IMG/VR virus record: IMGVR_UViG_3300046474_000142
Strand: one strand, 5' to 3'
DNA length: 64,000 nucleotides
Source of the DNA: a virus
Taxonomy: Duplodnaviria > Heunggongvirae > Uroviricota > Caudoviricetes
How positions within the stretch are numbered: position 1 is the first letter of the stretch; every line of letters starts with the position of its first letter. Under the pieces are notes generated by a model, which was not told the DNA's origin, ran no database searches, and saw only the letters and a list, made by a program, of their open reading frames with translations. Shown piece after piece: positions 2,792 to 33,402 of the stretch. The position numbers and the translations under genes were made by a program.

Positions 2792-2820
2792 TTGACAGCA
2801 ACACGTAATGGTGGTATGAT
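2792..2820 (+). promoter_or_regulatory. sigma70-type promoter TTGACA-17-TATGAT
   Basis: Exact -35 hexamer with a 17-nt spacer and a TGgTATGAT extended -10, upstream of the 2843 gene. Confidence 0.5.
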
Positions 2821-2842
2821 CTAGCTTTACGCGGAGCAAGCA

Positions 2843-3433
2843 ATGAATTGGAACGATTGGTTTGAATACGACGAAAGTAGTGTTAGCTGCCTACGGTGGA
2901 AGGTTGACCGTTACGCTGGCGGTAGGCAACTCGTTGCTGCCGGAGATGAAGCCGGGACGATAGGTGGGCAGCAGTACTACCGTGTACAGTTGCAGGGGAA
3001 GATTTACACGGTACATCTGATTATCTGGGAACTCCTGAAGGGAGGCGTGCCGGAAAGTTTCGAAGTAGATCACGAGAACCGGGTGAAGACCGACAACAAG
3101 ATTGGAAATCTCAGACTTGTGAGCAAGAGTGTCAACTGCCGGAATCGACGCCTGAGAAGCGATTCAAAGACGAAGCTGAATGGAGTAACGAAACGGGAGC
3201 GGACGCTTCCTTCCGGTTCGTCATTCGTTAGTTGGGTCGGTAGGTACGTCAATAAAGCCGGGGAGCGTTTGAGCAAGGAGTTCTCAACATCGAAGTACGG
3301 ACAGGATGGGGCTAAACAAGCAGCCATCACATTTATTAACCAGTGTAAGCTGGCCGATGATGGCGGCTCCTACACAGATACACACGGAAAGGAACAGCAT
3401 GACGCTTTATCAGATTATTCAGCAGTTGCATAA
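2843..3433 (+). CDS. HNH-AP2 homing endonuclease (free-standing)
   Basis: N-terminal YDESSxSCLRWK motif; HNH core VDHENRVKTDNKIGNLRLV; C-terminal AP2-like DNA-binding region. It is one of 9 paralogs in this window. Confidence 0.8.
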   Translation: MNWNDWFEYDESSVSCLRWKVDRYAGGRQLVAAGDEAGTIGGQQYYRVQLQGKIYTVHLIIWELLKGGVPESFEVDHENRVKTDNKIGNLRLVSKSVNCRNRRLRSDSKTKLNGVTKRERTLPSGSSFVSWVGRYVNKAGERLSKEFSTSKYGQDGAKQAAITFINQCKLADDGGSYTDTHGKEQHDALSDYSAVA

Positions 3434-4754
3434 CGCTAACGGTACAATCGAGAAGCAGGCAATTTTTGATGCGAACAAAGGCAACGCACTACTGAAAGAG
3501 TATGTCCGGGTGACGCTCGACCCCGGCATCAATTACTACCAGAAGAAGATTCCGAAGGCCATCCGCGAGGGCTGGGAAGAGTTCAGTGCAGGCACAATCC
3601 TAGAGCTATACGAGAAACTTGCCAACAGGCGTGTGACCGGGGATTTAGCCAAGGAGTACTTGCAAGCTGTCTACAGTGATGCCGACGCTGAAGCACGGGA
3701 GCTAATAAGCTACATGATCGACCGGAAAATCGGTAAGACCAGTGTTGGCGAAACTATGGCCCTGAAAACTTGGCCGGGGCTATTCTTCACCGTGCCGTAT
3801 CAAAGGTGCTCGCTGCTGGACAAGAAGGCCCGTGAGCGCTTCGGCAAGCTGAAACGCTTCTACGTACAGACCAAGGCTGACGGCTCGTTTGCGTACATCG
3901 TCAAGCGTAAGGATCACACCGTCGATGTCATCACGCGACAAGGTTCGAAGTACCCTCAGTGGTTTGCTGAGATGCTTACGAACGGCATGGAGCCGGGAAC
4001 TGTCGTAGTAGGAGAACTTTTAGTGGGCGAGGCGTTCGAAGGGCCAGAGGATGTGATGCTGGACCGGAAGACTGCAAACGGCATCCTGAATAGCTGCCTG
4101 AAGGACGGGGATGGGCTAGGTACGCATCGTACCGTGCATGTGCAAGCATGGGATATGCTGACACAAGACGAGTTTGAAGCCGGTAAGTCGTCCCGCAACT
4201 ATGAAGACCGGCTGAAAACGATGCAATCATGCCCGTACTTCAGCATGACTCTCAGAATTCAGATCATCTACACCGCTGTTGTGTCGTCGCTGGAAGAAGC
4301 ATTCGCTATCTACCAAGAGCACTTGCAACGTGGTCTGGAAGGTGTCATCATCTCGGACCCGGACGACCTGTGGAAAGATGGAACATCGAAGGGCAAGGTA
4401 AAGCTGAAGATCAAGTTCGAAGTGGAGATGCGTGTCAAGCGTCTGTACGAAGGCGAAGGCAAAGCTGCTGGTATGTTGGGCGGTGTTGAGCTGGAATCGG
4501 AAGACGGCGGAATCGAGAACGACTGTGGCTCCGGCTTCGATGACAAACAGCGTAAGCTGTTCTGGGATCAACCGCACATGCTACTGAACATGGTCGTAAT
4601 GGTGGAAGCCAACGACATCACGACTACCCGTGATGGCAAGAAAAAGCCTGCCTTGTCCTTGCCGATCTTCTGCGAAGTGAGGTATGATAAGGTGGTAGCA
4701 GACACTACCGAGCGTATCTACGCACAACTAGAAGCAGCAAAACAAGGAGGGTAA
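3399..4754 (+). CDS. ATP-dependent DNA ligase
   Basis: KADGSFAYIV (motif I KxDG, adenylation lysine), VVVGELLV (motif III), EGVIISDP (motif IV) and a Lys-rich motif V KGKVKLKIK. The preferred start is ATG 3399 with RBS ggaaaggaa. The longer ORF from 3306 overlaps the upstream HNH gene. Confidence 0.8.
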   Translation: MTLYQIIQQLHNANGTIEKQAIFDANKGNALLKEYVRVTLDPGINYYQKKIPKAIREGWEEFSAGTILELYEKLANRRVTGDLAKEYLQAVYSDADAEARELISYMIDRKIGKTSVGETMALKTWPGLFFTVPYQRCSLLDKKARERFGKLKRFYVQTKADGSFAYIVKRKDHTVDVITRQGSKYPQWFAEMLTNGMEPGTVVVGELLVGEAFEGPEDVMLDRKTANGILNSCLKDGDGLGTHRTVHVQAWDMLTQDEFEAGKSSRNYEDRLKTMQSCPYFSMTLRIQIIYTAVVSSLEEAFAIYQEHLQRGLEGVIISDPDDLWKDGTSKGKVKLKIKFEVEMRVKRLYEGEGKAAGMLGGVELESEDGGIENDCGSGFDDKQRKLFWDQPHMLLNMVVMVEANDITTTRDGKKKPALSLPIFCEVRYDKVVADTTERIYAQLEAAKQGG

Positions 4755-5138
4755 ATGAACATTAACGTAGAAGTAGGTATTAGCCGGACCAGCCGGGACG
4801 AAATCCACATCCGTGTACAGGATAAGACCAGCCGAGCGAAGTTCGTGGATGTCTGCATGACGCCAGCCGACTTCGCTATGGCTCTCACGGGCCTGTACGG
4901 CGTTGAAGCTACCGCTGAAGTGAGGGGCTTGGATGTCGTCGGCAAGACGAAGATCACGGAGGACCGATCCATCGAGTGTCCTCTCAGTACGTATGACAAA
5001 AAGGAGCTGGGAGCGTGGCTGGAAGAACACGGTAAGGAGGAAGGCTGGGAAGTCAACACGTACCTGGGAAGCCAGCGCAGCGTTACGCACCTGAACGGCA
5101 AGACCGTGCTGAACTATTCCGTGACGCGTTACGAATAA
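4755..5138 (+). CDS. hypothetical protein
   Basis: 127-aa ORF with RBS caaggagggtaa before the ATG. Confidence 0.55.
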   Translation: MNINVEVGISRTSRDEIHIRVQDKTSRAKFVDVCMTPADFAMALTGLYGVEATAEVRGLDVVGKTKITEDRSIECPLSTYDKKELGAWLEEHGKEEGWEVNTYLGSQRSVTHLNGKTVLNYSVTRYE

Positions 5139-5145
5139 TCGACAC

Positions 5146-5180
5146 TTGACAAAGAATCGTACGTAGTGTAAGCTACGTAC
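5146..5180 (+). promoter_or_regulatory. Early promoter TTGACA-17-TAAGCT with a TG extension. It is overlapped by a perfect inverted-repeat operator GTACGTAG-tgtaag-CTACGTAC (5159-5180).
   Basis: The same 35-bp promoter/operator sequence is repeated at 10374-10408. A one-arm variant lies at 20556-20584. Confidence 0.6.
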
Positions 5181-5205
5181 TTTCTGAATGATCTAAGGAG
5201 ATGGC

Positions 5206-5712
5206 ATGGAAGATAAGGTTACAGCAAATATGTTGGACGATTTGACCCAAGCCTACCTGAATTCCATGTTCTCGTACGATCCGCTGACAGGACGGCTTAC
5301 TGCGAAGGTGAAGTCAGGAAGGTTTGTTCCTGGTAAAGAAGTCGGGAGCGTGAAAGGCGGCGGCTATAGGCAAGTACGTATATCGGGCAAGACTTACTTA
5401 GTCCATCGTGTCATCTGGTGCATGGTCTACGGAAACTTTCCAGCTAAACGTGTAGATCACAAGGACCGGAACCGATTGAATAACTCCATATCGAACTTGA
5501 GAGTCGTCACAGCGATAGGTAACGCAACAAATCGCAGCGGCAGGGTGGAAAGTAAGACGGGGATAAAAGGCGTGTGCTGGCACTCCCGTGTACAGCGATG
5601 GTACGTCCAGATTAGGAGCGAGGGCAGGGTAGTTTATAGATCGTACTACGACGACCTTAGTGTTGCGGAATCTGTAGCGGTAAGGGAGTATGCAAAGCTG
5701 GGGGTATCTTGA
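5206..5712 (+). CDS. HNH-AP2 homing endonuclease
   Basis: Paralog of 2843. HNH core is VDHKDRNRLNNSISNLRVV; the tail is AP2-like. Confidence 0.8.
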   Translation: MEDKVTANMLDDLTQAYLNSMFSYDPLTGRLTAKVKSGRFVPGKEVGSVKGGGYRQVRISGKTYLVHRVIWCMVYGNFPAKRVDHKDRNRLNNSISNLRVVTAIGNATNRSGRVESKTGIKGVCWHSRVQRWYVQIRSEGRVVYRSYYDDLSVAESVAVREYAKLGVS

Positions 5713-6176
5713 GTATCGTTATAAGGCTGTTGCTTGCTATTTTGGTAGCAGTGCCTATAAAGCTCGGAATCCCTGCCACGGTCCCTCCGGCCCCAGTAGC
5801 TCCGAAATACAGCCAGGACGATTTGTGCCTTGCTTGGGTAATTGACAGCGAGGCACGAGGGGAACCTGCGAAGGGTCAGCGCGCGGTCTATGACGTAGTG
5901 CTCCACAGGATGGAAACCCGTGATATGACAGCCTGCGAAGTGGTGAAAGAATCCGGGCAGTTCAGCGGATTCCACAGGGGTATGCGACTAGTAGCAACGG
6001 AAGAGATGTTGCAAAGGCTGAAGAAAGTCCGTAGAATAGCCCCTGTCGCAAGTAGTGCTACGTTCTTTCATAGTGACTATGTGAAGCCTACGTGGGCTTC
6101 CAAAATGAAGAAGATTTTAACCATCGGTCGGCATACATTTTTTGCCGAACGAAAACACAAGGAGAAGAAACAATGA
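5709..6176 (+). CDS. SleB-type cell wall hydrolase-like protein with an N-terminal hydrophobic (signal or TM) segment
   Basis: WVIDSEARGEP...AVYDVVLHRM...ESGQFSGFH resembles the Hydrolase_2/SleB family. Start is TTG, overlapping the upstream stop. The N-terminus is hydrophobic (LLLAILVAVPI). Confidence 0.45.
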   Translation: MSIVIRLLLAILVAVPIKLGIPATVPPAPVAPKYSQDDLCLAWVIDSEARGEPAKGQRAVYDVVLHRMETRDMTACEVVKESGQFSGFHRGMRLVATEEMLQRLKKVRRIAPVASSATFFHSDYVKPTWASKMKKILTIGRHTFFAERKHKEKKQ

Positions 6177-6490
6177 CTATCGCAAGCGATGCCGGATTCG
6201 TTATCGGCAAACAGTACCAAATCAAAAGTGGGCCCAGCGTTGGCGAAATCGTGACGTTCAAAAAGGATGATGGGACCGACTGCCCCGCGTTCGACTGTAG
6301 CAGAGAATACGACAGCGACGGCTGGTCTTTCATCACGTTGTCTCGCTTAAGGCCAGTGGAAACGACCGGGGCAGCTACGCCCCTGAAGAACTTCATCATC
6401 GACGTTACCGATGTGGAAACCACTGTGCGGGTCGGGAAGCTCCTGAGCGCTGACCAACTCAAGCGCATCATCGAGATTCTGGGGGAATGA
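6173..6490 (+). CDS. hypothetical protein
   Basis: 105-aa ORF with RBS aaggagaagaaaca before ATG 6173. The longer track ORF from 6092 is not preferred. Confidence 0.5.
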   Translation: MTIASDAGFVIGKQYQIKSGPSVGEIVTFKKDDGTDCPAFDCSREYDSDGWSFITLSRLRPVETTGAATPLKNFIIDVTDVETTVRVGKLLSADQLKRIIEILGE

Positions 6491-7596
6491 TGCTGACGAT
6501 TCAAGGCAAATACGGAATCAAGGCTACCATACTAGCTGACAGTATCAGCGAGATGGGCGTCCGATTCCTGACGTACGAAATCGAATACCCGCGCCTGATT
6601 CTGGCGGAATTGAATACGCACAAGATGCTGTCGAAGAACAGCTTCAGTTCCCGTGCTGTACCGTTCAACAAGATGGTGCAGCAGCTCAACGGACGCCCGG
6701 TACGTTTCGGTGCGAACCAAGGCGGGATGCAGGACAAGGGAGAAGACTTCGATGCAATGGTCATCATTCCTGAGTATCTGTACGATGCCTTGGCTCAATA
6801 CCTGTTGCAAGAGCTAGACGGTATGCTAACCGTGGAAGACCTAAAAGAGATTTCGGGAGACGGCACAGCGCAGATGACGGCGTTCGGTGCGTGGAATTTC
6901 CACAGGTTCCTGAGCGTGGGTATCGCCGGAGCGTTGAACGACGCTAAGTACCACAAGCAAGTGTTCAATCGCCTGACCGAAGCACACCAGATGATGAAGA
7001 CCGTCATCTCCGGTACGGAGCTGGAAAACTTCTTCTGGCTGCGTGACCACGGAGCGGCTGACCCATCGCTGCATGAGCTGGCCCGTGTGATGAATGAAGC
7101 TCGTAAGGCTTCCACGCCGGAGCTGCTGAAGGCTGGTGAGTGGCATTTGCCGTATCTGGACTGGTTCCGTGGGGATAAAGAGGAGCAGATGTTCTTCCTG
7201 CCCTCTGAAAACGCTGACGATGTTGGGGATATTACAATCCTGACGTTGGAAGAGGCAATCAAGGTAAGCTGCGCTCGTTGTGCTGCTGTCAGCTACCGTA
7301 ATGAAGGCTACGGGTTGGAAAAGTCGCTGGAAGTATATGACCGTCTGGTGGGTGATGAGAAGAAGCACGCAAGCGCTTTCGAACATTGCGCTACGCCGAT
7401 TCGCAAGCACGGCTACTACCAGAGCAGCATTCGTCCTAGCAAGTACGAGCAGAACCATCCGTGGGTTCCGTACACCTGGGAAGAAGGCATCACCCACGTA
7501 ACCCGTGACGGCAACTTGTGGAGTGGCAACCTGAAGGGCTGGCGACAATACCGGAAGCTGATTCCGGGTGAGAACTACACAGGGAGTGAAAAATGA
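6487..7596 (+). CDS. ThyX-like (flavin-dependent thymidylate synthase family) protein, divergent
   Basis: THKMLSKNSFSSRAV resembles the ThyX RHRxxSxNxxSxRY signature. KKHASAFEHCATPI resembles the second ThyX motif (DSHAQWEIQ). At 369 aa it is longer than typical ThyX, so assignment is tentative. Confidence 0.4.
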   Translation: MMLTIQGKYGIKATILADSISEMGVRFLTYEIEYPRLILAELNTHKMLSKNSFSSRAVPFNKMVQQLNGRPVRFGANQGGMQDKGEDFDAMVIIPEYLYDALAQYLLQELDGMLTVEDLKEISGDGTAQMTAFGAWNFHRFLSVGIAGALNDAKYHKQVFNRLTEAHQMMKTVISGTELENFFWLRDHGAADPSLHELARVMNEARKASTPELLKAGEWHLPYLDWFRGDKEEQMFFLPSENADDVGDITILTLEEAIKVSCARCAAVSYRNEGYGLEKSLEVYDRLVGDEKKHASAFEHCATPIRKHGYYQSSIRPSKYEQNHPWVPYTWEEGITHVTRDGNLWSGNLKGWRQYRKLIPGENYTGSEK

Positions 7597-7967
7597 GCAA
7601 ATTGGACAGCATGAACCTAACGAAAGCTACGTCAGATGTTGTAAGCAATGACATAGATTTCGCAGTGAGACAAACCCGACGACGCCTGCCTACGGAATAC
7701 ACTGCTTACGTTGTTACTAAAGAGGGGCAAGTAGTGGTATGCCCACGACAGGACAGCACTAAAGATGAGTGGTCAGCCCACGTAGGCAGAGTCATCGGGA
7801 TGGTAAAAGTAGACTCCGTTATCTTCTGCGGCGAAGCTTTGAACCAGCAACGTGAAGACATTTACGCCGTAAAGGTGGAGATGGCGGATCGGTACGTAAT
7901 CGGCGTGGCTCCGATGACTAAGAAAGCTATCGGAGCATTCACTTGGACAGAGGTAGTGAAAGGTTGA
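7593..7967 (+). CDS. hypothetical protein
   Basis: 124-aa ORF; its ATGA start overlaps the upstream stop. Confidence 0.5.
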   Translation: MSKLDSMNLTKATSDVVSNDIDFAVRQTRRRLPTEYTAYVVTKEGQVVVCPRQDSTKDEWSAHVGRVIGMVKVDSVIFCGEALNQQREDIYAVKVEMADRYVIGVAPMTKKAIGAFTWTEVVKG

Positions 7968-7968
7968 T

Positions 7969-8085
7969 ATGAACTGGGGGGATTACTTCTACTACGATGA
8001 AAGCTCCCCGCCCTGTCTCCGTCAGGCAGCTATCCAAGATATGAATACAAATGGTGCAGGATACACAGAAAGGCATGGAAAATGA
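7969..8085 (+). pseudogene. Decayed remnant of an HNH-AP2 homing endonuclease gene. An internal deletion fuses the N-terminal 17 aa to the C-terminal 13 aa.
   Basis: 38-codon ORF MNWGDYFYYDESSPPCLRQ...NTNGAGYTERHGK. Its first ~45 nt are near-identical to the start of the intact paralog at 33405. The last codons match the AP2 C-terminus xGAxYTxRHG, and the whole HNH core is missing. Confidence 0.6.
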
Positions 8086-9845
8086 CGGACAACAAGTGGG
8101 GACTCGATCTGAGCTACCCACATTCGTGTCGCTGCCCTAGATGCGCCAGAAACGGCAAAGATACGGCGGGCGACAATCTCAGTATCTACGGCCCCGGACT
8201 TGGAGCGTACTGTCATTCTTGCCAGTGGACGCTACTAAGCGACGAGGAAAAAGCCGCACGCGGCATTGACGAGGAAGAAGAGGATGAAACAGTGAGCACA
8301 AGAGAACCGATCACGGACGAAGAGAACGCTCGTATAAAGCAGTACACTGGTATTAAGTCTAAGGGGTGGCGAGGTATCAAGGACGAAACGAACAAATTTT
8401 TTGGAGTAAGGTATGAATATGATGAAGAAACCGGCGAGCCAGATGCTCAGTACACGCCTACGACTATCGGCGGCAAGCTTGTCGGCTACAAGGTCCGGCG
8501 AATGCCAAAAGACTTCAGCAGTCCCGTTGGAGTTGTTGGTAAAGATTGTGAACTCGCCGGGCAATTCAGGTTCCCCAATGGTGGCCGGGTAGTTTTGATC
8601 GTAGGTGGAGAGGTAGACCAACTCTCCGCTTACCAGATGATTGCTGAGTACCAAGCTACGAAAGGCTATGATGCCATCGCCGTGGTATCTCCGACTGTTG
8701 GTGAGACGGGATGTGCGAAGCAGGTTCAAGCGCAGTATGAATGGTTCGATAAATTTGACCGAATCATCATCGGTATGGATAACGATGCAGCCGGGGAAGC
8801 AGCAACGCACAAGATCGCTAAGGTACTGCCGAAGAACAAGCTGTACGTGGCTAAATGGTCCAAGAAAGACCCGAACGCTATGTTGCAAGCCGGTTTGGAG
8901 AAGCAGTTCGTCAACGACTACTTCCGTTCGAAGCCTTACACGCCGGATGGCATCGTTGGGTCGAGTTCGCTTGCGGACAAGATTCGTGAAGCTGCTGCGC
9001 TGCTGAAGATTCCGCTGCCGAAGTTCATGCACAAGTTGCAGGAGATGATGGCCGGTGGCATCCCGCTGAAGACGATCATCAACCTCGGCTCCGCGTCTGG
9101 CACTGGTAAGAGTACGATCATTGATGAGATGACCTACTTCTGGATTTTCAACAGTCCGTACAAGCCGGGTATCGTGACGCTGGAAAGCGATGCGGGCCAG
9201 TATGGTACGAAGCTGCTGAGCCGACATCTGGGCCGGAAGATCGACCTGATTGCGGACGTTACGGAGAAGTTGGCGTATCTCGACTCCGACTACGTACGTC
9301 AGAAGGAGCACGAGCTGTACTTCAGACCGGATGGTACGGAACGCTTCTATCTTGTCGAAGACCGTGATGGTGGCCTCGATTCGATGAAGGCGAAGATCGA
9401 AGAGCTGATTATCGGCTGTGGTTGCCAGCTCATCATTCTGGACCCGTTGCAGGACATTCTGGATGGTATGTCGAACGAAGACCAAGCTGTCTTCCTGAAG
9501 TGGATGAAGGGGCTTTTGAAGAGCCATGACGTAACGTTCATTAACGTGAATCACGTACGTAAAAGTGGTGGGGGCCAAAAAGCGAATTCAACCGGGGCCG
9601 ACCTGTTCGAAGAGGATATGCAAGGCAGTAGCTCCATCTTCAAATCTGGTGCATGTAACCTGTTGTTCACCCGTAACAAGGAAGCGGAGGATGAAGTGGA
9701 ACGCAACACCACTCGTATGAAGGCCAGTAAGATTCGTTGGACCGGCAAGACCGGCGTAGCAGGTGACTACTACTACAGCAACGAAACGCACACGATGCAC
9801 GATAAATCCGATTGGTTGGAGAAGAATGGTGTTAAAGAGTTCTGA
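8082..9845 (+). CDS. T7 gp4-like DNA primase-helicase
   Basis: N-terminal Cys4 zinc ribbon (CRCPRC...CHSC); TOPRIM motifs (VVLIVGGEVDQ, IIIGMDNDAAGE); helicase Walker A GSASGTGKST and Walker B LIILDPLQD. Confidence 0.85.
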   Translation: MTDNKWGLDLSYPHSCRCPRCARNGKDTAGDNLSIYGPGLGAYCHSCQWTLLSDEEKAARGIDEEEEDETVSTREPITDEENARIKQYTGIKSKGWRGIKDETNKFFGVRYEYDEETGEPDAQYTPTTIGGKLVGYKVRRMPKDFSSPVGVVGKDCELAGQFRFPNGGRVVLIVGGEVDQLSAYQMIAEYQATKGYDAIAVVSPTVGETGCAKQVQAQYEWFDKFDRIIIGMDNDAAGEAATHKIAKVLPKNKLYVAKWSKKDPNAMLQAGLEKQFVNDYFRSKPYTPDGIVGSSSLADKIREAAALLKIPLPKFMHKLQEMMAGGIPLKTIINLGSASGTGKSTIIDEMTYFWIFNSPYKPGIVTLESDAGQYGTKLLSRHLGRKIDLIADVTEKLAYLDSDYVRQKEHELYFRPDGTERFYLVEDRDGGLDSMKAKIEELIIGCGCQLIILDPLQDILDGMSNEDQAVFLKWMKGLLKSHDVTFINVNHVRKSGGGQKANSTGADLFEEDMQGSSSIFKSGACNLLFTRNKEAEDEVERNTTRMKASKIRWTGKTGVAGDYYYSNETHTMHDKSDWLEKNGVKEF

Positions 9846-10377
9846 CCTTTCGGAAGTCTTTCTCTACGACCCGGAGGTTCCGGGTTGTTTGAGATGGAAT
9901 AAAGACATTATGTGTGGGCATAATAGATCGCAAGTCAAAGTCGGCAAGGGAGAAGTAGCAGGAGGGCCGGGTGAGAGGTACTACACCGTACGACACGATT
10001 ACCAAGCATACCTGAGTCACCGTGTCGTATGGGAACTCCACAACGGTCCAATACCTTCGGATATGACTGTAGATCACGAAGACGGCAATGGCTTGAACAA
10101 TCTTATCGGGAATCTGAGGTTGGTAACACAACTTATTAACCGCCGAAACTCTGGTAAGATGTCGAACAATACTTCAGGCTTCACAGGGGTAAGTTACCAA
10201 TCCCGTGAACACGCTTGGAGGGCAAGCTGGAAAGAGGACGGGAAGCAGAAGTCGAAGTCCTTCAGAATCTTCACGTTTGGGGACGACGCATTCAAGCTGG
10301 CCTGCCAACACCGAGCGCAGCAAATCGCAAGACTAAACAGCCAAGGCGCAGGGTATTCCGAACGCCACGGCACTTGA
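9826..10377 (+). CDS. HNH-AP2 homing endonuclease
   Basis: LYDPEVPGCLRWNKD; VDHEDGNGLNNLIGNLRLV; AP2-like tail NSQGAGYSERHG. Start is ATG 9826, inside the 3' end of the primase-helicase gene. Confidence 0.8.
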   Translation: MVLKSSDLSEVFLYDPEVPGCLRWNKDIMCGHNRSQVKVGKGEVAGGPGERYYTVRHDYQAYLSHRVVWELHNGPIPSDMTVDHEDGNGLNNLIGNLRLVTQLINRRNSGKMSNNTSGFTGVSYQSREHAWRASWKEDGKQKSKSFRIFTFGDDAFKLACQHRAQQIARLNSQGAGYSERHGT

Positions 10378-10408
10378 CAGAGGAACGTACGTAGTGTAAG
10401 CTACGTAC
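10374..10408 (+). promoter_or_regulatory. Early promoter with operator, identical to the 5146 copy
   Basis: TTGACA-17-TAAGCT, with GTACGTAG (10387-10394) and CTACGTAC (10401-10408). Confidence 0.6.
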
Positions 10409-10447
10409 TTTCTAACCTCGCCCGAAAGGGCAAACCAAGGAGAAGAT

Positions 10448-11497
10448 ATGACCAAAGCAACTGCAAAAATCACTGACCAATTCAAGAGTACCTACGTGTA
10501 CACGTATGGTATGTCTGACAGTGCTGTGGAAGCTGTGCAGGAAGCGTACTTCCGCATGGGCTTCAGCTACTACGGAAAGCGTACCGCGTGGAAAGGCCCG
10601 CACTCGTACATCCGCGTTGACGAGGATGGGCGTATGTTCCGTGCTTCGGGTACGCACAAGAACCGCCCAGCAGCATACGGTGAACACAAATCAGTCGAAG
10701 TGTTCTACGCCTTCTTGAGTGACAGCGCTGAAGCCGTACGCAGGATCAAACGCGAAGAAAGCAAGGCTTCCAAGAAGCGCCGTGCTCAGCGTAAGTGGGA
10801 TGCTACTGCTACCAAGCGTACCACGGAAGTCTGCCCTGTGCGTCGTGACGTTATCGTATCCGTCCGGTTGAATAACGGTGCTACCTACACCGGGGAAGCC
10901 GGGAAATGGGACTGGGCGACCTCGGACTCCATGAGGTTCGCTGACATCGAAAGCTACAAGGTGCTGTCGAAGAATAAGCATCGTCCGCTGCCGGAAAAAG
11001 GAACGACTCTCTCGCTGGAACAGATGGCGACTGGCATCGCTGAAAGCCTGAACCGCGAAGTAGCCATCCCGGTATCGAGCGCTGAGATTCTGGACGCTTC
11101 GAACAACGTCATCGGCGTCACCAGCGTGACAGAAGTGGCCCCGGTGGGGGATGTCAACAGTGATTCACGAGGCTCCGGCGCTCGCTACAACGCTGGCAAG
11201 CCTGATTTCTCGCTGATTCCGATGGCCTTACTGGAAGGGGAGGCCCGTGTCTGGAACTACGGTGCGAAGAAGTACAAGGCATGGAATTGGATGAAGGGCA
11301 TGGATTGGTCTGTCCCGTTCGCTTGTGCAATGCGCCATATGGCAGCGTGGCAGCGAGGCGAAGACACCGATCCTGAAACCGGCGAGAGCCATCTGGACCA
11401 TGCAATGTGCAACCTGCGTATGCTGCGGTACTACGCGGACTTTTACAAAGAGGGCGACAATCGCCCGAAAGAGTTCTTCGCACCGGAACAGAAATGA
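10448..11497 (+). CDS. hypothetical protein whose C-terminal domain resembles the DUF5664 dATP/dGTP diphosphohydrolase-associated domain
   Basis: C-terminal RYNAGKPDFSLIP...YGAKKYKAWNW...MRHMAAWQRGEDTDPETGESHLDHAMCNL is recalled as the DUF5664 pattern. The N-terminal 230 aa are unassigned. Confidence 0.4.
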   Translation: MTKATAKITDQFKSTYVYTYGMSDSAVEAVQEAYFRMGFSYYGKRTAWKGPHSYIRVDEDGRMFRASGTHKNRPAAYGEHKSVEVFYAFLSDSAEAVRRIKREESKASKKRRAQRKWDATATKRTTEVCPVRRDVIVSVRLNNGATYTGEAGKWDWATSDSMRFADIESYKVLSKNKHRPLPEKGTTLSLEQMATGIAESLNREVAIPVSSAEILDASNNVIGVTSVTEVAPVGDVNSDSRGSGARYNAGKPDFSLIPMALLEGEARVWNYGAKKYKAWNWMKGMDWSVPFACAMRHMAAWQRGEDTDPETGESHLDHAMCNLRMLRYYADFYKEGDNRPKEFFAPEQK

Positions 11498-11742
11498 CCT
11501 GTCTACTGGCGTTCCTTACGAGCTTCTTTAACATTGGACTGCGGAGCTTCCAACAGTTGAACGTTGTTGGCAAGAAGTACTTGTGGATTCTGCCCACGAG
11601 TATGATTATGGCAGCTTGTGAGGCTCTGATCTTGCTGTCGTACGTCCATAACGGATGGGGCTGGATCGTGGCAGCTATCGGCCTTGGTGGAGGGTTGGGC
11701 AGTATAACATCCACGTACCTGCACGGGCGTCTAACCCGGTAG
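11494..11742 (+). CDS. small membrane protein (two predicted TM helices)
   Basis: 82 aa from ATG 11494, overlapping the upstream TGA. Hydrophobic stretches LLAFLTSFF and WIVAAIGLGGGLG. Confidence 0.4.
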   Translation: MTCLLAFLTSFFNIGLRSFQQLNVVGKKYLWILPTSMIMAACEALILLSYVHNGWGWIVAAIGLGGGLGSITSTYLHGRLTR

Positions 11743-11796: not shown

Positions 11797-12375
11797 ATGG
11801 TCTACGGAGTAGGTGTTTATGAGAGAGGGGAGTTTCCAGCGTACGTATGCGGAAGGCAGACCAAGGAGTACGTCTTGTGGAAGGGAATGCTGGAAAGATG
11901 CTACAGTGATAAACTGCACGCTAGGAAGCCGTCTTACGTTGGATGCTCTGTGTCAGAAGACTTCAAGTTCTTTCAAGAGTTCGCCCGCTGGGCTAACCGA
12001 CAGGTTATTTTCGGGGAGGTAGGAGTGCATCTGGACAAAGACTTGCTGGTTAAAGGGAACAAAGTGTACAGCCCGGAAACTTGTGTACTCGTACCGAAGG
12101 ATGTCAACCTGCTCTTAACTAAGCGTGAAGCGGAGCGCGGGCTTTATCCTATAGGAGTTTCGTTAGATAAGGGGCGAGGCTTATATGCCGCAGAGGTAAG
12201 GTTAAACGGTAAGAAAAAGAACCTCGGAAGGTTCCCTACGCCGGAAGACGCATTCGCTTCATACAAAACTGCGAAGGAAGCTCAAGTAAGGGCTGTAGCA
12301 GAAAAGTTCAAAGATTCGCTTGACCCAAGGGCATACGTAGCACTACAATCTTACCAAGTCGAACTGACAGACTAA
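11797..12375 (+). CDS. AP2-domain homing-endonuclease-like protein, family 2 (degenerate HNH)
   Basis: N-terminal WKGMLERCYS...YVGCSVSEDF; central HLDKDLLVKGNKVYSPETCVLVP (HNH-like layout); AP2/ERF-like GVSLDKGRGLYAAEVRLNGKKKNLGRFPTPEDAFASYKTA. Paralogs lie at 14039 and 25001. Confidence 0.6.
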   Translation: MVYGVGVYERGEFPAYVCGRQTKEYVLWKGMLERCYSDKLHARKPSYVGCSVSEDFKFFQEFARWANRQVIFGEVGVHLDKDLLVKGNKVYSPETCVLVPKDVNLLLTKREAERGLYPIGVSLDKGRGLYAAEVRLNGKKKNLGRFPTPEDAFASYKTAKEAQVRAVAEKFKDSLDPRAYVALQSYQVELTD

Positions 12376-14038: not shown

Positions 14039-14620
14039 GTGACAAGGCTCGTACACGGCATAGGCCGATATGATAAAGGTAAGTACAAAGGCTGCATCGA
14101 CTACGTGGCGACGTTTGAGTATGGCGTGTGGACAAGAATGCTTCGCCGGTGTTCTGACCAGCAGTTCCAGAAAGAAAACCCTACGTACACAGGATGCGGA
14201 GTGAGTGAAGAGTTCTTGAACTTTCAAGACTTCGCGGAGTGGGCAAGCAAGCAGAAAGGGTTCCGTTCTGAAGGTTGGCAACTCGATAAAGACCTTTTGC
14301 TAAAAGGTAATAAGGTGTATAGTAGTGCTACATGTGTGTTCCTCCCCGAAGAAATCAACAAGGCACTGCCAAATTCTAAGGCTAGTCGAGGGGTGTACCC
14401 TGTAGGGGTCGAGAAGCACGGGCCGAGTTTTAGGGCTAAAGTCGGCGGGAGCATTAAGCAGGTACGCTACGGTTGCTATTCGACCCCGGAGGCTGCATTT
14501 GAGCGATACCGAGTAGAAAAGAAGCGCTCGCTTTGCGAACTGGCTGAAAAGTACAAATCACAACTGGACAGGAGGGCTTACGAAGCACTACTTAACTATG
14601 ACATTAATATAGGGGACTGA
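14039..14620 (+). CDS. AP2-domain homing-endonuclease-like protein, family 2
   Basis: GTG start 6 nt after aaggag (the in-phase ATG two nt upstream gives ATG-TGA). WTRMLRRCSD...YTGCGVSEEF...LDKDLLLKGNKVYSSATCVFLP plus an AP2-like region. Confidence 0.6.
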   Translation: MTRLVHGIGRYDKGKYKGCIDYVATFEYGVWTRMLRRCSDQQFQKENPTYTGCGVSEEFLNFQDFAEWASKQKGFRSEGWQLDKDLLLKGNKVYSSATCVFLPEEINKALPNSKASRGVYPVGVEKHGPSFRAKVGGSIKQVRYGCYSTPEAAFERYRVEKKRSLCELAEKYKSQLDRRAYEALLNYDINIGD

Positions 14621-17476: not shown

Positions 17477-17505
17477 TTGACAGGCGGGATGAGAAGCCTT
17501 ACTAT
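17477..17505 (+). promoter_or_regulatory. sigma70-type promoter TTGACA-17-TACTAT
   Basis: Exact -35 hexamer with a 17-nt spacer, upstream of the small gene at 17538. Confidence 0.5.
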
Positions 17506-17537
17506 CTTACCTGTCGCAACCAACTAAGGAGAAAGAA

Positions 17538-20287: not shown

Positions 20288-20566
20288 ATGAGCGATACCA
20301 AATTTACGAGCGTGCCGGAATACTACAGCCACATCGCCAAGCAGCAAACCAACCGTACCGAGGCGAAGCCGGTTGTCCACTTCTACGCTCTGCCGATGGG
20401 CCTGTCGGAAGTGAAGGAAGGCTACCGCATCCGGGTTGTCCCGTTCGATCATCCGGCTGAGTACCTGAACGGTCAAATCGTCACCACTTCGCCAGTCGTC
20501 AAGGCGAACGAAGACGGCAGCTTCGAAACGCTCAATACCCTCTACGTGCCGAAACTTGACAAGTAA
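20288..20566 (+). CDS. hypothetical protein
   Basis: 92 aa; RBS ataggagagaat. Confidence 0.5.
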   Translation: MSDTKFTSVPEYYSHIAKQQTNRTEAKPVVHFYALPMGLSEVKEGYRIRVVPFDHPAEYLNGQIVTTSPVVKANEDGSFETLNTLYVPKLDK

Positions 20567-20584
20567 CGCTACGTAGTGTAAGAT
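20556..20584 (+). promoter_or_regulatory. Promoter TTGACA-17-TAAGAT with a single operator half-site CTACGTAG
   Basis: Same architecture as the 5146 and 10374 promoters, but the right operator arm is degenerate (ATACGATT). Confidence 0.5.
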
Positions 20585-20637: not shown

Positions 20638-21249
20638 ATGGAAATGTCCCTGCACCGCATCATCGCTGAAATCAAAGCAACCGAGAACAAGCTGCAAGTC
20701 CTGAACGGCACTTCGTTCGTGTTCACCGTGCCAGTCGATCAAACGGCTGAAACTACCGAAGGCAAGAAGCTGTCCCAGTCGAACTTCGATAGCGTGGCAG
20801 CACTGCTTACCAAGCTGGCTGTCCTGAAGGCAGCACGAAACAAGGCAAACGCCACTACCAACGTTACCATCGCTGGCAAGACCATGACCATCGATGAAGC
20901 GCTGGCGAAGAAAGCAGCCAACATCTACCAGCTCAACTTCCTGAACACCCTGCGTGCTCAGATGAACGCCGGTAAGATCAAGGTCGATCAAGTGCAAGCT
21001 CAGATCGAATCGAAGATCGCTCAGCAAGTGACTGCTGCTTCCGGTGGTACGAAGAAAGCAACCGACGACGAAATCAACGTCTTCCGCACGATGGCTGAGC
21101 GCAACACCAAGCTGGCTGTGGTCGCCTTCGACGGTATGAAAGAAAAGGTCGAAGCGATGGCCCGCGATCTGGAACAGTTCACTACTGAAGTGGACTACAC
21201 CCTGTCGGAAGCAAACGCTATCACGAAAGTGGAAGTCGTTCTGTCGTAA
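20638..21249 (+). CDS. hypothetical protein (alpha-helical, coiled-coil)
   Basis: 203 aa; RBS ttaggagaaataaa. Confidence 0.55.
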   Translation: MEMSLHRIIAEIKATENKLQVLNGTSFVFTVPVDQTAETTEGKKLSQSNFDSVAALLTKLAVLKAARNKANATTNVTIAGKTMTIDEALAKKAANIYQLNFLNTLRAQMNAGKIKVDQVQAQIESKIAQQVTAASGGTKKATDDEINVFRTMAERNTKLAVVAFDGMKEKVEAMARDLEQFTTEVDYTLSEANAITKVEVVLS

Positions 21250-21667: not shown

Positions 21668-21742
21668 GGGTCGTTAGCTCAGCGGATTCAGAGCAGCGGT
21701 GTTCTAGGCCGCAGTGCGCGGGTTCGAACCCTGCACGACTCA
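21668..21742 (+). tRNA. tRNA-Arg (anticodon UCU); CCA is encoded at 21743-21745
   Basis: Cloverleaf folded by hand. Acceptor GGGTCGT/ACGACTC (one GU pair); D-stem GCTC/GAGC; anticodon stem GCGGT/GCCGC with loop gTTCTAg; T-arm GCGGG-TTCGAAC-CCTGC; discriminator A. Confidence 0.7.
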
Positions 21743-21769
21743 CCACAACCATGTTAAGGAGAAAACAAA

Positions 21770-21927
21770 TGCAACGCAAAGAATTTATGTCCGCAGCTCA
21801 GACCCGCGCCATCGGCAACGCCCCTCGTACCCACGAGAACTGCATCCGTCTGCTGAAGGAAGCAAAGCTGGCCCCAGTGGCCCGTCCGGGTAAGACTGCT
21901 AAGGACGCTGCCCGCAAGGCTCGTTAA
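21770..21927 (+). CDS. small basic protein (52 aa)
   Basis: ATG 21770 after aggagaaaacaa. The longer track ORF from 21649 would run through the tRNA, so the short form is preferred. Confidence 0.4.
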
Positions 21928-22508
21928 TGGCTGCTAGACTCATCGAAGTCCAGTGGACCGAACACTTCTACTACGACGAGTCTAGTCCTACGTGCCTGAG
22001 ATGGAATCGGGACGTGTTCAGGGGTCGGCACCCGTACAAATTCAAGACGAAGGGTGATGTAGCAGGTAACACAGGTAAAGGCAACTGCTTCATATGGCTG
22101 TACGGTGTCCCCTACCTAGCTCACAGAGTTATATGGGAGATGCATAACGGGTCAATAACCGACTCAGAGCTTGTGATAGACCATATCGACGGGAATGGGA
22201 AGAACAACGTCATATCGAATTTGAGGCTAGTCACTAACAAAGTTAATGCTCAAAACAGTAAGTTACATGCTCACAATTCATCTGGAACTTGTGGTGTTTC
22301 TTACCGAGAGTTGGAGAACGAGCATGGAACTACGTACTACTACTGGGTAGCTAACTGGAAGGAAAATGGAAAGTACAAGCGAAGGTCGTTTTCTATTCTG
22401 AAGTACGGCGACGATTTAGCTAGAACTTTGGCTGAAAAAGCAAGGGCTGAAGCAATAGCTAGAATGAACGCTTGCGGCGAGAGCTACACTGTAAGGCATG
22501 GATTATAG
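21927..22508 (+). CDS. HNH-AP2 homing endonuclease
   Basis: FYYDESSPTCLRWNRD; IDHIDGNGKNNVISNLRLV; AP2-like tail NACGESYTVRHG. Confidence 0.8.
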   Translation: MAARLIEVQWTEHFYYDESSPTCLRWNRDVFRGRHPYKFKTKGDVAGNTGKGNCFIWLYGVPYLAHRVIWEMHNGSITDSELVIDHIDGNGKNNVISNLRLVTNKVNAQNSKLHAHNSSGTCGVSYRELENEHGTTYYYWVANWKENGKYKRRSFSILKYGDDLARTLAEKARAEAIARMNACGESYTVRHGL

Positions 22509-24826: not shown

Positions 24827-25004
24827 TTTCTACAAAGAGCTGGGTAGCAAGTACACCGAGTTCACCATCACACACGCCATCGCAGCAGCGAAGGAATCCG
24901 CTGCAAAGCACAAGCCTCAGTACTACACCGGGGACGATTTTGAGCCTCATCTGTGGGTCGTGGAAGCGATCTGCTGGGCGTTGAAAATCGGCGGCATCGA
25001 ATGA
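24819..25004 (+). CDS. hypothetical small protein
   Basis: 61 aa, between coupled genes. Confidence 0.35.
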   Translation: MTDFYKELGSKYTEFTITHAIAAAKESAAKHKPQYYTGDDFEPHLWVVEAICWALKIGGIE

Positions 25005-25588
25005 CACGTAAAGTCGAAGGGGTCGGTGTGTACCACCCCGGCGATTACGTCAGCGTAGTTCCGGGGACTGGGATGCATACGCCTGAATATAGGGTGTGGC
25101 GTGATATGCTGAAGCGCACTCACAACAAGACGCACCAAGCAAGGTTCCCTGCGTACGCCGGATCGTCGGTGTGCGGAGAGTGGCTTGACTTCCAGACGTT
25201 TGCGAAGTGGCTGCACGACAACGGCTTCACACCTGATAAGAGGTTGGATAAAGACATTTTAGGTAAGGGAGCCAAGCACTACTCTCCTGCAACTTGCTGT
25301 CTTGTCCCGCCTAAGATCAACAGCGTCATAGTAGGAAAGCACGGAATGTATGCAGCGGGAGTTGGAAAACGCAAGGACAGGAATGGTCCGAAAGTTTATA
25401 CCGCGAAGTGCAGGGACGTTGATGGTGTTCGGAGGTTCTTAGGTACGTTTGAGACAGAGGAACAGGCAGCTAAGGCATACTTGTTTGCCAAGGTGATAGC
25501 GGTACGCCAAGCATCGTGGAGGGCGTTCGATGCCGGGGAAATTACGGAGCCGGTCTTAATGGCACTACTCGATTGGAGGCCAACATGA
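25001..25588 (+). CDS. AP2-domain homing-endonuclease-like protein, family 2
   Basis: Start ATG 25001 (ATGA overlap). WRDMLKRTHN...YAGSSVCGEW...LDKDILGKGAKHYSPATCCLVP plus an AP2-like region. Confidence 0.6.
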   Translation: MTRKVEGVGVYHPGDYVSVVPGTGMHTPEYRVWRDMLKRTHNKTHQARFPAYAGSSVCGEWLDFQTFAKWLHDNGFTPDKRLDKDILGKGAKHYSPATCCLVPPKINSVIVGKHGMYAAGVGKRKDRNGPKVYTAKCRDVDGVRRFLGTFETEEQAAKAYLFAKVIAVRQASWRAFDAGEITEPVLMALLDWRPT

Positions 25589-26330: not shown

Positions 26331-27170
26331 ATGAGCAACACTATTGACTGGACCGTGCTGGCTGTGAAGTTGGACGAAGCAGGGTCGAGCTGGCGAGAAA
26401 TCGCGGATATGCTGAAGAAGCCGAAGAGCACCGTCAGTGACTTCCTCCGGGGCTATCATGCTCAGAAGGCAATCGCAGAGGGTAACGATGGCTACGACAA
26501 CACCCGCATCCTCTTCATCTCGGACTTGCACGTACCCTACCATCATAAGAATGCTTTGCCGTTCTTGGAGGGGCTGAAGAAGAAGTACAATCCGACACGG
26601 GTTATCTGCCTTGGCGATGAACTGGATCATCACGCGATGTCGTTCCACGACAGCGACCCTGACCTGCCATCTGCCGGTGACGAGCTTCGCCGTGCTCTAC
26701 CTGTCATCAAGGAACTTGAGAAGATGTTCCCAGTGATGGACTTGATTGACTCTAATCACGGAAGCATGGCTTTCCGCAAGGCGAAGCACCACGGGATTTC
26801 GAAGCACTACATTCGTAGCTACAACGAAGTTCTTGAGGTTGGAAACGGTTGGAAGTGGTATAATGACCTTGTGCTAGATATGAGTGAGTGGGGCAAACCT
26901 GATGTGTACGTGCATCACGGTAAGACGAAGAAGGCCGTAGCAACGAGCCGTGCGATGTCGATGTCCCATGTATCGGGCCATTACCATGAAAGCTACGGGG
27001 TGGAGTTTTGGAGTAACCCAAAAGGCTTGTACTTCGGAATGAATTCGGGCTGCTTGATCGATGATAAGCAGTTAGCATTCGCGTACAATAAGGTGTTCCC
27101 ACACCGCCCCATCATCGGAACTACGCTTATTATCAACGGTAATCCGGTGCTAGAGGTAATGGAACTGTGA
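26331..27170 (+). CDS. calcineurin-like metallophosphoesterase with an N-terminal HTH-like segment
   Basis: ILFISDLHVPYHH (motif I); VICLGDELDHH (GDxxD); DSNHG (GNH). The N-terminal WREIADMLKKPKSTVSDFLRG is HTH-like. Confidence 0.65.
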   Translation: MSNTIDWTVLAVKLDEAGSSWREIADMLKKPKSTVSDFLRGYHAQKAIAEGNDGYDNTRILFISDLHVPYHHKNALPFLEGLKKKYNPTRVICLGDELDHHAMSFHDSDPDLPSAGDELRRALPVIKELEKMFPVMDLIDSNHGSMAFRKAKHHGISKHYIRSYNEVLEVGNGWKWYNDLVLDMSEWGKPDVYVHHGKTKKAVATSRAMSMSHVSGHYHESYGVEFWSNPKGLYFGMNSGCLIDDKQLAFAYNKVFPHRPIIGTTLIINGNPVLEVMEL

Positions 27171-27736
27171 CCAACTGGGCTGACTTGTTCTACTACGACG
27201 AGACTAGCCCTAGCTGCCTGAGATGGAAAGTAGAGAGAACCTGCGGGAAAGGGAGGGTGCATGTCCTTGCTGGCGACCCTGCTGGTTCTCCTACAGCGAA
27301 CGGATATTGGCAAGTTGAAGTAGGTGACACTGGCTACCTGTGCCATAGGATTGTTCTGGAACTATTTGGCAACGTTGTAGATGGTCTGTTCGTAGATCAC
27401 ATCGACCACGACAGGTTCAATAACCGGATCGGGAACTTGAGGGCAGTTAGCCGCAGCCTTAACAACAGGAACTCATTGGGGCGTTGTGACAACACTAGTG
27501 GTGTGGTGGGCGTGTCTCGGCACGTTATCAAAGATAAGTACCACTACTGGACAGCCGAGTACTCGACGCTAGAAGGGAAATCTGTTAAGATGAGCTTTTC
27601 GGTGAACAAACTTGGAGAGCAACATGCATTCGATCTTGCTTGTAAAGCTAGGAAGGAAGCAGTAGATAAACTAAATGCCGAGGGAGCCGGGTACACCCCG
27701 GACCACGGACAACCTAAAGGAGAAACAAATGAGTGA
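27167..27736 (+). CDS. HNH-AP2 homing endonuclease
   Basis: GTG start overlapping the upstream TGA. FYYDETSPSCLRWK; VDHIDHDRFNNRIGNLRAV; AP2-like tail NAEGAGYTPDHG. Confidence 0.8.
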   Translation: MTNWADLFYYDETSPSCLRWKVERTCGKGRVHVLAGDPAGSPTANGYWQVEVGDTGYLCHRIVLELFGNVVDGLFVDHIDHDRFNNRIGNLRAVSRSLNNRNSLGRCDNTSGVVGVSRHVIKDKYHYWTAEYSTLEGKSVKMSFSVNKLGEQHAFDLACKARKEAVDKLNAEGAGYTPDHGQPKGETNE

Positions 27737-32673: not shown

Positions 32674-32702
32674 TTGACAGCAACCGTAAGAAGGGTTACT
32701 AT
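32674..32702 (+). promoter_or_regulatory. sigma70-type promoter TTGACA-17-TACTAT
   Basis: Exact -35 hexamer with a 17-nt spacer, upstream of the 32740 gene. Confidence 0.5.
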
Positions 32703-32739
32703 GTAGCCTTTCTTACCTAACTAACCAAAGGAGAATTGA

Positions 32740-33174: not shown

Positions 33175-33402
33175 ATGTACGAAATTTTTAGCATGGAAGG
33201 TTGCGCTAAGTGCGTAGACGCTGCCAAGCTTCTGACCGCTAAGGGTCTGGAATTCAAAGTGACCAAGATTGACGAGGATGCTAATGCAGCAGCGTTCATC
33301 CGCCGTGAACAGCATCGCTCGATGCCGCAGATTTACAAGGACGGCGTGCTCATCCCCGGTGGCTTTGCAGGATTGCAAGCGTACTTCGCAAAGCAGGAGT
33401 GA
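33175..33402 (+). CDS. glutaredoxin (NrdH/Grx-like redoxin for the RNR)
   Basis: CAKC active site near the N-terminus. MPQIYKDGVLIPGGFAG matches the Grx glutathione-site motif (P.IF..G..IGG). Confidence 0.7.
   Translation: MYEIFSMEGCAKCVDAAKLLTAKGLEFKVTKIDEDANAAAFIRREQHRSMPQIYKDGVLIPGGFAGLQAYFAKQE

Follow-up and report, generated by a model that had tools for sequence, protein, structure and literature searches.

Probable promoter and stem-loop cassettes over sigma-70-like promoters in an uncultivated tailed phage

Cassettes in which a promoter is combined with a stem-loop, known as promoter-early stem-loop (PeSL) cassettes, have been described in the T4-like phages RB49, phi1, PST and nt-1 (Arbiol et al. 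2010, PMC2839356; Comeau et al. 2014, PMC4122927), and the literature descriptions that were found concern T4-like myoviruses only. In RB49 and phi1 these cassettes carry a near-consensus TTGACA-N17-TATAAT promoter in the gap from the stop codon of the upstream gene to the Shine-Dalgarno sequence of the downstream one, with stem-loops that mostly sit between the -35 box and the -10 box or over the latter and include G-T pairs; one of the stem-loops lowered the expression of lacZ to nearly the same degree as did the rrnB T1 terminator, and the cassettes mark sites of gene shuffling (PMC2839356; PMC4122927). The element analyzed here, a promoter overlapped by an inverted repeat, is found at positions 5146-5180 of a 64,000-nucleotide stretch (hereafter the window) of the Caudoviricetes record IMGVR_UViG_3300046474_000142 in IMG/VR, and again at 10374-10408. 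In our view the element is probably a PeSL-type cassette, a composite of promoter and stem-loop.

The likeness to PeSL cassettes extends to several properties. The promoters are near-consensus sigma-70 promoters judging by sequence only (-10 box TAAGCT, TAAGAT or TACAAT), the predicted stem-loop is located between -35 and -10 or over -10, G-T pairs occur in the stems, many copies are present per genome in sequence subfamilies, and copies are situated at junctions of gene gain or loss. On the other hand, the phage is unrelated to T4 (a genome of ~90 kb with a family A DNA polymerase and a long tape-measure protein), the stems are GTAG/CTAC-rich instead of polyG/polyC, an invariant 9-nt motif in the spacer is common to some of the promoters, and the mobile neighbours are HNH homing endonucleases where those of PeSL cassettes are ORFans. 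Unlike PeSL cassettes, the two copies also lack an AT-rich tract upstream of the -35 box, where coding sequence (cgacac, acggcac) that is not AT-rich was found; AAAAC or AAAAT precedes the -35 box in a tail-module promoter of the window and in some relatives.

Short hairpins centred near -10 are likewise a feature of the early promoters of phage N4, in which DNA hairpins are read by the virion RNA polymerase. The N4 hairpins have 5-7 bp stems and 3-nt loops, are not accompanied by sigma-70 -35 and -10 boxes, and need the virion enzyme. Here, by contrast, TTGACA is perfect and a TAnnnT box is present, and the polarity of the G·T pairs points to the sense strand. Among the window proteins that were scanned, none was recognized as a phage RNA polymerase, and host sigma-70 promoters are therefore to be expected. 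Another sigma-70 promoter whose spacer contains a conserved element is the lambdoid PR', where the Q-binding element is located between -35 and -10. The Q-binding element occurs at one late promoter per genome, together with a promoter-proximal pause and a downstream terminator, whereas at least 4-6 motif promoters per genome were found here, in replication, nucleotide-metabolism and tail modules, and no Q-like gene was detected.

Stem-loops over host-type promoters

The arrangement described in the initial annotation, TTGACA-N17-TAAGCT with a perfect 8-bp inverted repeat whose right arm extends over the -10 box, was present both at 5146-5180 (copy 1) and at 10374-10408 (copy 2). In copy 1 the arms GTACGTAG (5159-5166) and CTACGTAC (5173-5180) are separated by six nucleotides, and the right arm covers the last two nucleotides of the -10 box; copy 2 has the same layout. 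The two units had been taken to be identical, but 3 of 35 positions differ, and all three (5152, 5155 and 5157) belong to the spacer's 5' half; the blocks 5143-5151 and 5158-5185 are identical to 10371-10379 and 10386-10413, respectively (CACTTGACA and the 28-mer CGTACGTAGTGTAAGCTACGTACTTTCT). A lone perfect 8-bp inverted repeat is not beyond chance in 64 kb, as eight distinct ones with loops of 3-12 nt were counted in the window vs. 7.9 ± 3.3 in shuffled sequences. The predicted RNA hairpins had free energies of -15.3 kcal/mol (z -4.8) in copy 1 and -16.6 kcal/mol (z -3.6) in copy 2.

Orthologous loci were retrieved from IMG/VR relatives (about ten syntenic genomes with ~70-77% nucleotide identity, several of them on contigs of ~90 kb, designated below by L numbers) via neighbouring proteins, the helicase protein in the case of the site occupied by copy 2, so that they were unselected for the motif. 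Copy 2 is the ancestral post-helicase promoter, orthologous in relatives, and every one of the post-helicase orthologues retains a hairpin. Hairpin and promoter core were identical to those of the window in L176, L177 and L191, with a GTAA loop in a 9-bp stem and an intact promoter. The same arms were found in L186 around the loop CTTACC (-10 box TACCCT), and in L175, L178 and L189 around the 10-nt loop ATAGCTTACA, with the left arm 4 nt closer to -35 and the -10 box TACACT. In L180 (arms GTAGGTAG and CTACCTCC, loop as in the window, promoter intact) and L187 (arms GTAGGTAG and CTACCTAC, GTTA loop in a 9-bp stem), the left arm is paired with CTACCT(C/A)C, which represents a C-G to G-C double change (pair counts in the structure alignment, CG:6 and GC:2). 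The promoter has been lost in L187 (TTAACA, 15-nt spacer, TTAGCT) and in L179 (no -10 box), yet a stem is retained in both (9 and 12 predicted pairs, respectively), that of L179 being a different stem of 13 positions with one mismatch and the loop ATTA. Spacing between the arms thus takes values of 4, 6, 6 and 10 nt among orthologues, and the register of the left arm relative to -35 moves by 4 nt. The right arm CTACGTAC is confined to this single orthologous group of post-helicase promoters.

Hairpins were not limited to the two copies. Thirteen strong promoters of the window were folded from just past -35 to about +17, and further hairpin promoters were detected at 41016, 32674, 17477 and 2792 (Table 1); the 64 kb of the window contain four motif promoters and at least six hairpin promoters. 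In orthologues of the 41016 promoter, variation affects 7 of the 15 pairs; at two of these both partners have changed in compensation (G-C to A-T, T-A to A-T), and no pair is broken. Orthologues of the 32674 promoter, one of them at only 67% protein identity, have different stems at the same position, and at the post-ligase junction of relatives GTAGGAAG and CTTCCTAC flank a TAAGAT -10 box. In general, the stems around the -10 boxes of other promoters of the group are unrelated in sequence and 9-16 bp long. Over distinct TTGACA-17-TAnnnT promoters, z was below -2 in 19 of 30 as against 2 of 30 coding controls, with median values of -3.2 and +0.5, respectively. Non-canonical pairs within the predicted stems are G·T, and in 20 of 23 hairpins the sense strand was the better-folding one, with a margin over the complement that reached 10 kcal/mol. 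With G·T pairs available on the sense strand only, sense-strand RNA, or at least one single sense strand, is indicated rather than a cruciform or a protein site in duplex DNA.

Since the arms covary, the loop length varies and the wobble pairs are strand-specific, selection appears to act on a structure and not on a protein site. The comparison indicates that a host-type promoter is overlaid here by a stem-loop, which is encoded by the inverted repeat and kept by selection as a sense-strand structure, and that the selected hairpin is independent of the promoter and general across the phage group.

The cassettes occupy ~60-70 nt between genes, in the order upstream stop codon, promoter with stem-loop, Shine-Dalgarno sequence and start codon. 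Their -35 boxes start 8-13 nt after the upstream stop codon (8 nt past that of a 127-aa ORF, 4755-5138, for copy 1) or overlap it: the TGA stop of the HNH-AP2 ORF sits within the TTGACA of copy 2, and in relatives the helicase gene ends there likewise. The Shine-Dalgarno sequence follows ~10-40 nt past the stem in the window copies and 4 nt past it in L187. We infer from its sequence that TTGACA-17-TAAGCT is active as a promoter, and a strong host sigma-70-type promoter would thus be packed into a short gap between two genes. Transcription would be expected to start ~7 nt after the -10 box, at or within the 3' arm; transcripts from the cassette's own promoter could therefore not form the stem, and only RNA derived from upstream would carry it whole. 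The hairpin would then work on read-through RNA only, while the same DNA restarts transcription, and its likely role would be to attenuate or terminate read-through or to provide a protective 3' structure for the upstream message. In either case the downstream gene would be insulated and driven from its own promoter. An attenuator or stabiliser function of this kind may be supposed for the hairpins described here from their analogy to the PeSL stem-loops that were tested in RB49 and phi1. Two family promoters without a -10 hairpin, at 58089 and 50385, are located right behind canonical GC-rich terminators with T-runs, which fits a division of labour.

Several observations weigh against this account. 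There is no conserved U-tract after the stem (orthologue tails UUUCU, UUCC, UUAU and UAAC), and the U residues that follow it in the window copies would, by prediction, be paired with purines where the spacer begins, so that the element is not a canonical intrinsic terminator. The promoters at 17979, 20556 and 35167 directly abut the upstream gene and yet have no hairpin. Both GTACGTAG and CTACGTAC are conserved as sequence in most orthologues, with just one covarying pair in the post-helicase group. Moreover, the motif TA(C/G/A)GTAGTG, which contributes the left arm, is also conserved in hairpin-less promoters (20556, 58089 and hairpin-less groups in relatives); structure alone does not account for the whole element.

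If the cassette interpretation is correct, a -10 box covered by an inverted repeat need not signal an operator, and PeSL-type cassettes would be extended from T4-like myoviruses to an unrelated, uncultivated lineage of ~90-kb phages. This would suggest that such cassettes are a general means of keeping transcription units insulated where phage genes are tightly packed, and that mobile genes (HNH endonucleases in this case) insert at the junctions they mark. For annotation, such cassettes would supply predictions of promoters and transcript boundaries.

Other small features lie beside these promoters. A 5'-UTR hairpin, GCCC-GAAA-GGGC (10420-10431), is located between copy 2 and its Shine-Dalgarno sequence; it is kept in L191 with another loop (GCCC-GTTA-GGGC), and a similar hairpin at 35300-35314 precedes another gene. 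Downstream of the 41016 promoter, the HNH gene at 41115 has an apparent weaker promoter of its own (TTGCAA-17-TATACT, 41064-41092), and both gene and promoter are missing in L088.

The promoter family and its spacer motif

A motif search over the window, as suggested in the initial annotation, returned an exact family of four members, TTGACA-N8-TACGTAGTGTANNNT being found four times (a fifth match had three mismatches) vs. 0.03 expected. In addition to copies 1 and 2, the family comprises the one-armed version at 20556-20584 that had been reported (CTACGTAG, -10 box TAAGAT), whose hairpin is not significant (z -0.7), and a member at 58089-58061 on the minus strand that had been overlooked. The latter follows directly after a canonical terminator and has no -10 hairpin; as it belongs to the tail module, the family is not restricted to early genes. 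The window also has 19 copies of GTACGTAG vs. 1.5 in dinucleotide shuffles, but order-2 and order-3 Markov models expect 5-6, and most of the excess is attributable to composition, given a general over-use of TAC, GTA and CTAC; that the copies represent nick sites, modification sites or a similar genome-wide signal was rejected in view of this expectation and of the lack of a common context among coding copies. Comparison with the relatives points to a host-type (sigma-70-like) promoter family with a conserved spacer element, which recurs orthologously in about ten related phage genomes.

The left arm of copies 1 and 2 coincides with the spacer motif TA(C/G/A)GTAGTG, at -21 to -13, and the cassette would in this respect re-use a family-wide motif. 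A tentative alternative, less likely than the stem-loop interpretation although compatible with it and concerning the left arm only, is that the motif is a sequence-specific element, either a candidate site for a phage transcription factor or an element that modulates host RNA polymerase through contact or deformability, and that it defines a co-regulated promoter class. Besides the exact match in all four window promoters, a scan of viral contigs for TTGACA-N8-TACGTAGTGTA argues for it, as 27 of 31 loci came from about ten relatives and only ~4 from unrelated contigs. The loci from relatives comprised 32 distinct promoter sequences that fell into orthologous groups by downstream gene and shared TACGTAGTG at -21 to -13. 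The control pattern TAGGTAGTG gave ~22 unrelated single matches, and since its matches were mostly unrelated singles, the enrichment of TACGTAGTG is specific to the phage group. Orthologues of the tail-module promoter, obtained independently of the motif, had an invariant GTAGTG core next to a 5' half of the spacer that varies freely. A second direct copy of the motif is situated 33 bp upstream in the tail-module promoter (TACGTAGTGCA), and the same is true of the orthologues of this promoter and of another promoter group that was encountered in relatives alone; these motif promoters are without a significant hairpin.

Against a sequence-specific site, the third position of the motif is variable (C, G or A) even within one genome, the motif is lost or shifted where the hairpin compensates (L186, L175), and no bacterial taxon is enriched for the pattern: a scan of 185,579 species genomes, made as a clue to the host, gave 16 scattered matches. 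Nor was a convincing DNA-binding regulator found in the window, which covers 64 of the ~90 kb of the genome; the only HTH-like signal among the 37 unannotated proteins scanned was a sub-threshold HTH_23 match in the metallophosphoesterase at 26331. The TACGTAG boxes downstream of the tail-module promoter, considered as extra operators, were rejected because both are arms of a covarying 5'-UTR hairpin with A-U, G·U and G-C at one pair among relatives. This leader hairpin (58050-58035, minus strand; L220, L222 and L228) has the form CUACGUAG-AGAG-CUACGUUAG, and a weaker version with one mismatch, ACGCAG...CTACGT, is present in the window. No relevant literature was retrieved with TACGTAGTG, and a metagenome scan added nearly no further relatives, most of its matches being unrelated promoters.

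A more specific version of the same idea, which we consider speculative and rather unlikely, is that the spacer box, often repeated directly 33 bp upstream, is the site of a candidate phage transcription factor or RNA polymerase-specificity factor that switches ~5-10 sigma-70-type promoters per genome. The offset of 33 bp places both copies on one face of the helix around -35. If this were true, the regulon would span early, nucleotide-metabolism, tRNA and tail genes, the hairpin of some cassettes would have been built on top of a factor site, and the 9-nt motif would serve as a handle for finding the regulator or the RNA polymerase contact in this group.

Other accounts of the motif were discarded. 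A genome-wide switch from TACGTAGTG to TAGGTAGTG in relatives, as expected of a co-evolving factor, was rejected because there were at most two matches per related genome, mostly unrelated background; a stem hidden around -35 in the hairpin-less promoters (upstream box with spacer motif) was not supported by folding (z +1.1 to -1.7); and avoidance of a restriction site, from TACGTA to TAAGTA or TAGGTA, was dropped as TACGTA persists elsewhere in the same genomes.

A second short motif with the same GTAGTG core, TAGCACTAC (reverse complement of GTAGTGCTA), had 5 of its 9 copies in noncoding DNA vs. 0.8 expected; it was noted at 1230, 1704, 12338, 18007 and 41033 (+) and at 50369 (-), at variable positions in or beside promoters. 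In relatives (L014:4120, L025:4860, L016:1527 and L079:2864) several motif promoters are clustered within 1-2 kb, in an apparent early region outside the window, and behind some of them is a conserved sequence, ACGACCGAACGAGCGCAGCGAGTGAGGGAG, of ~30 nt that might represent a small RNA or a leader. In L028 a motif promoter would directly drive a tRNA gene. Five unrelated contigs (L002, L033, L052, L037 and L064; 41-52% GC) carry TTGACA-N8-TACGTAGTG-TAT(A/G/C)(A/T)T followed ~20 nt on by a AACGTAAT(A/G)CGTAGTG box; the element of L002 is located upstream of an apparent XRE-type HTH gene, judged from its N-terminal sequence, and there the 9-mer may be a true operator.

DNA structure, terminator and operator explanations

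The inverted repeat of copies 1 and 2 might act at the level of DNA, as a cruciform or single-stranded hairpin that forms a hotspot or target for recombination, homing-endonuclease cleavage or replication, the two copies being substrates for recombination. HNH genes do abut hairpin promoters on either side (5206, 9763-10377, 2843 and 41115 in the window; L175, L178 and L189 among relatives), the post-ligase region differs among relatives, the DNA fold is stable (-9 kcal/mol, z -5.7), and PeSLs are known to recombine and to form mini-circles (PMC2839356). Copies 1 and 2 are, in addition, closer to each other than to their orthologues, which suggests gene conversion or duplication; since the region of copy 1 is variable among relatives and copy 1 is nearer to copy 2 than to any orthologue, copy 1 probably arose by one of these two routes. 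An explanation of this kind is nevertheless improbable, as antisense hairpins are much weaker where G·T pairs occur, which speaks against cruciforms, stems track promoter geometry and not endonuclease genes (many hairpin promoters have no endonuclease neighbour), and recombination between the window copies would remove the helicase gene.

The association with endonucleases instead reflects the insertion of endonuclease genes at these intergenic junctions. The HNH-AP2 insertion in front of copy 2 is missing from L176, L177 and L191, the same junction holds a different HNH gene in L175, L178 and L189, and the HNH gene at 41115 is missing from L088. Each copy had been said to precede an endonuclease or accessory gene; copy 1 is directly followed by an HNH_3 gene, but copy 2 comes after the HNH-AP2 gene instead of before it, and the gene that it precedes has a dATP/dGTP diphosphohydrolase domain.

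About equally improbable is a canonical Rho-independent terminator of the upstream gene that overlaps the next promoter by chance. The stem does lie 20 nt past the upstream stop codon, with G-C in 4 of its 8 pairs and TTTCT next to it in both window copies, and a consensus scan called the repeat terminator-like, albeit on the minus strand. The T-run of the plus strand, however, was under the scan threshold, is not conserved in orthologues (TTCC, TTAT, TAAC) and is predicted to be base-paired, and the clear terminators of this phage (11749-11780, ~50404-50431 and the one upstream of 58089) look different, with a GC-rich stem and a T-run.

The least probable explanation, to which we attach very little weight, is the operator model of the initial annotation, in which a phage repressor or activator would bind GTACGTAG-N6-CTACGTAC as a dimer and thereby occlude the -10 box: as in lambda OR/OL and the P22 Arc/Mnt operators, the inverted repeat lies over the core promoter, and both arms, each of which holds the palindrome TACGTA, are strictly conserved in the two window copies and six relatives, but in those systems a protein dimer fixes sequence and spacing, whereas here spacing and register vary, the arms covary in L180 and L187, the hairpin outlasts the promoter in L187 and L179 with nothing left to regulate, differing stems with sense-only G·T pairs at differing promoters would need many regulators, members 3 and 4 are one-armed, and no repressor-like gene was found in the window scans. 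Of the regulated promoter family proposed there, the sigma-70-like family with its spacer element is thus retained and the dimer operator is not.

Phage context and coordinates of features

The family A DNA polymerase of the phage had at most 51% identity to that of any isolate (Aeromonas phages and Pseudomonas PAK_P3-like phages). No match to isolated phages was obtained by megablast of 4700-11500, and blastn of the 47-nt cassette gave none even at E = 10, so no sequenced isolate carries the cassette. For the 127-aa ORF upstream of copy 1, the matches in the orthologue search were limited to a distantly related high-GC phage and to a fragment, 99% identical, that derives from the phage of the window itself. 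Genes for ligase, primase-helicase, DNA polymerase, ribonucleotide reductase subunits, a thymidylate-synthase-like protein and nicotinamide phosphoribosyl transferase are encoded on the plus strand (~1.8-43.5 kb), and structural genes, including those for major head, major tail and a 2184-aa tape-measure protein, on the minus strand (43.5-64 kb). An Rfam scan of the window detected tRNA only.

Table 1. Positions of promoters, stem-loops and genes in the window
Feature	Position	Strand	Description
Promoter copy 1	5146-5174	+	-35 TTGACA 5146-5151, 17-nt spacer, -10 TAAGCT 5169-5174; full unit 5146-5180
Copy 1 stem-loop (predicted)	5153-5185	+	inner 9 bp 5159-5167/5172-5180, GUAA loop; outer 4 bp 5153-5156/5182-5185
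HNH_3 homing-endonuclease gene	5206-5712	+	directly 3' of copy 1; region varies among relatives
Promoter copy 2	10374-10402	+	-35 10374-10379, -10 TAAGCT 10397-10402; unit 10374-10408
Copy 2 stem-loop (predicted)	10380-10419	+	inner 9 bp 10387-10395/10400-10408 plus outer pairs
HNH_3-AP2 homing-endonuclease insertion	9846-10373	+	between primase-helicase stop and copy 2; ORF 9763-10377
349-aa protein gene served by copy 2	10448-11497	+	C-terminal dATP/dGTP diphosphohydrolase domain
Family member 3	20556-20584	+	TTGACA-N8-TACGTAGTG-TAAGAT; precedes 203-aa gene 20638-21249
Family member 4	58089-58061	-	TTGACA-N8-TACGTAGTG-TACAAT; tail module, between major tail protein gene and 136-aa gene
Second direct motif copy	58098-58108	-	TACGTAGTGCA; 33 bp upstream of member 4 spacer motif
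Hairpin promoter	41016-41058	+	TTGACA-17-TACAAT; 15-bp stem 41023-41037/41044-41058; z -6.9
Hairpin promoter	32674-32716	+	TTGACA-17-TACTAT; 14-bp stem 32686-32699/32703-32716; z -5.3; after ribonucleotide reductase large-subunit gene
Weaker hairpin promoter	17477-17515	+	TTGACA-17-TACTAT; z -2.3
Weaker hairpin promoter	2792-2837	+	TTGACA-17-TATGAT; z -2.3; precedes HNH gene 2843-3433
Metallophosphoesterase (phrog_221)	26331-27170		N-terminal HTH_23, residues 14-43, 20.2 bits vs. 24.6-bit cutoff
tRNA-Arg (TCT) gene	21668-21745		
Homing-endonuclease-like genes	2843-3433, 5206-5712, 9763-10377, 21927-22508, 27167-27736, 30388-30924, 33399-33950, 37053-37631, 41115-41684		
Endonuclease remnant	7969-8085		
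Second endonuclease class	11797-12375, 14039-14620, 24953-25588		

The load of free-standing homing-endonuclease-like genes was high (at least 12 in 43 kb), most of them with the N-terminal FYYDESSPSCLRWK motif of HNH_3 enzymes, and one (30388-30924) separates two ribonucleotide reductase subunit genes.

Two other regions of the window deserve mention. A noncoding stretch of ~750 bp (1033-1790) separates the 324-aa ORF at 58-1032, which runs leftward, from the first gene in the rightward direction. It contains repeats of TACGTAGG and GTAGCACTAC, a promoter-like site that points leftward (near 1203) and a rightward promoter at 1717, and could be a control region, a replication origin or the boundary of the early region. 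Finally, the 369-aa thymidylate-synthase-like protein encoded at 6487-7596 and the diphosphohydrolase domain encoded within 10448-11497, which is MazZ/DatZ-like, hint at non-canonical nucleotide metabolism or DNA base modification.

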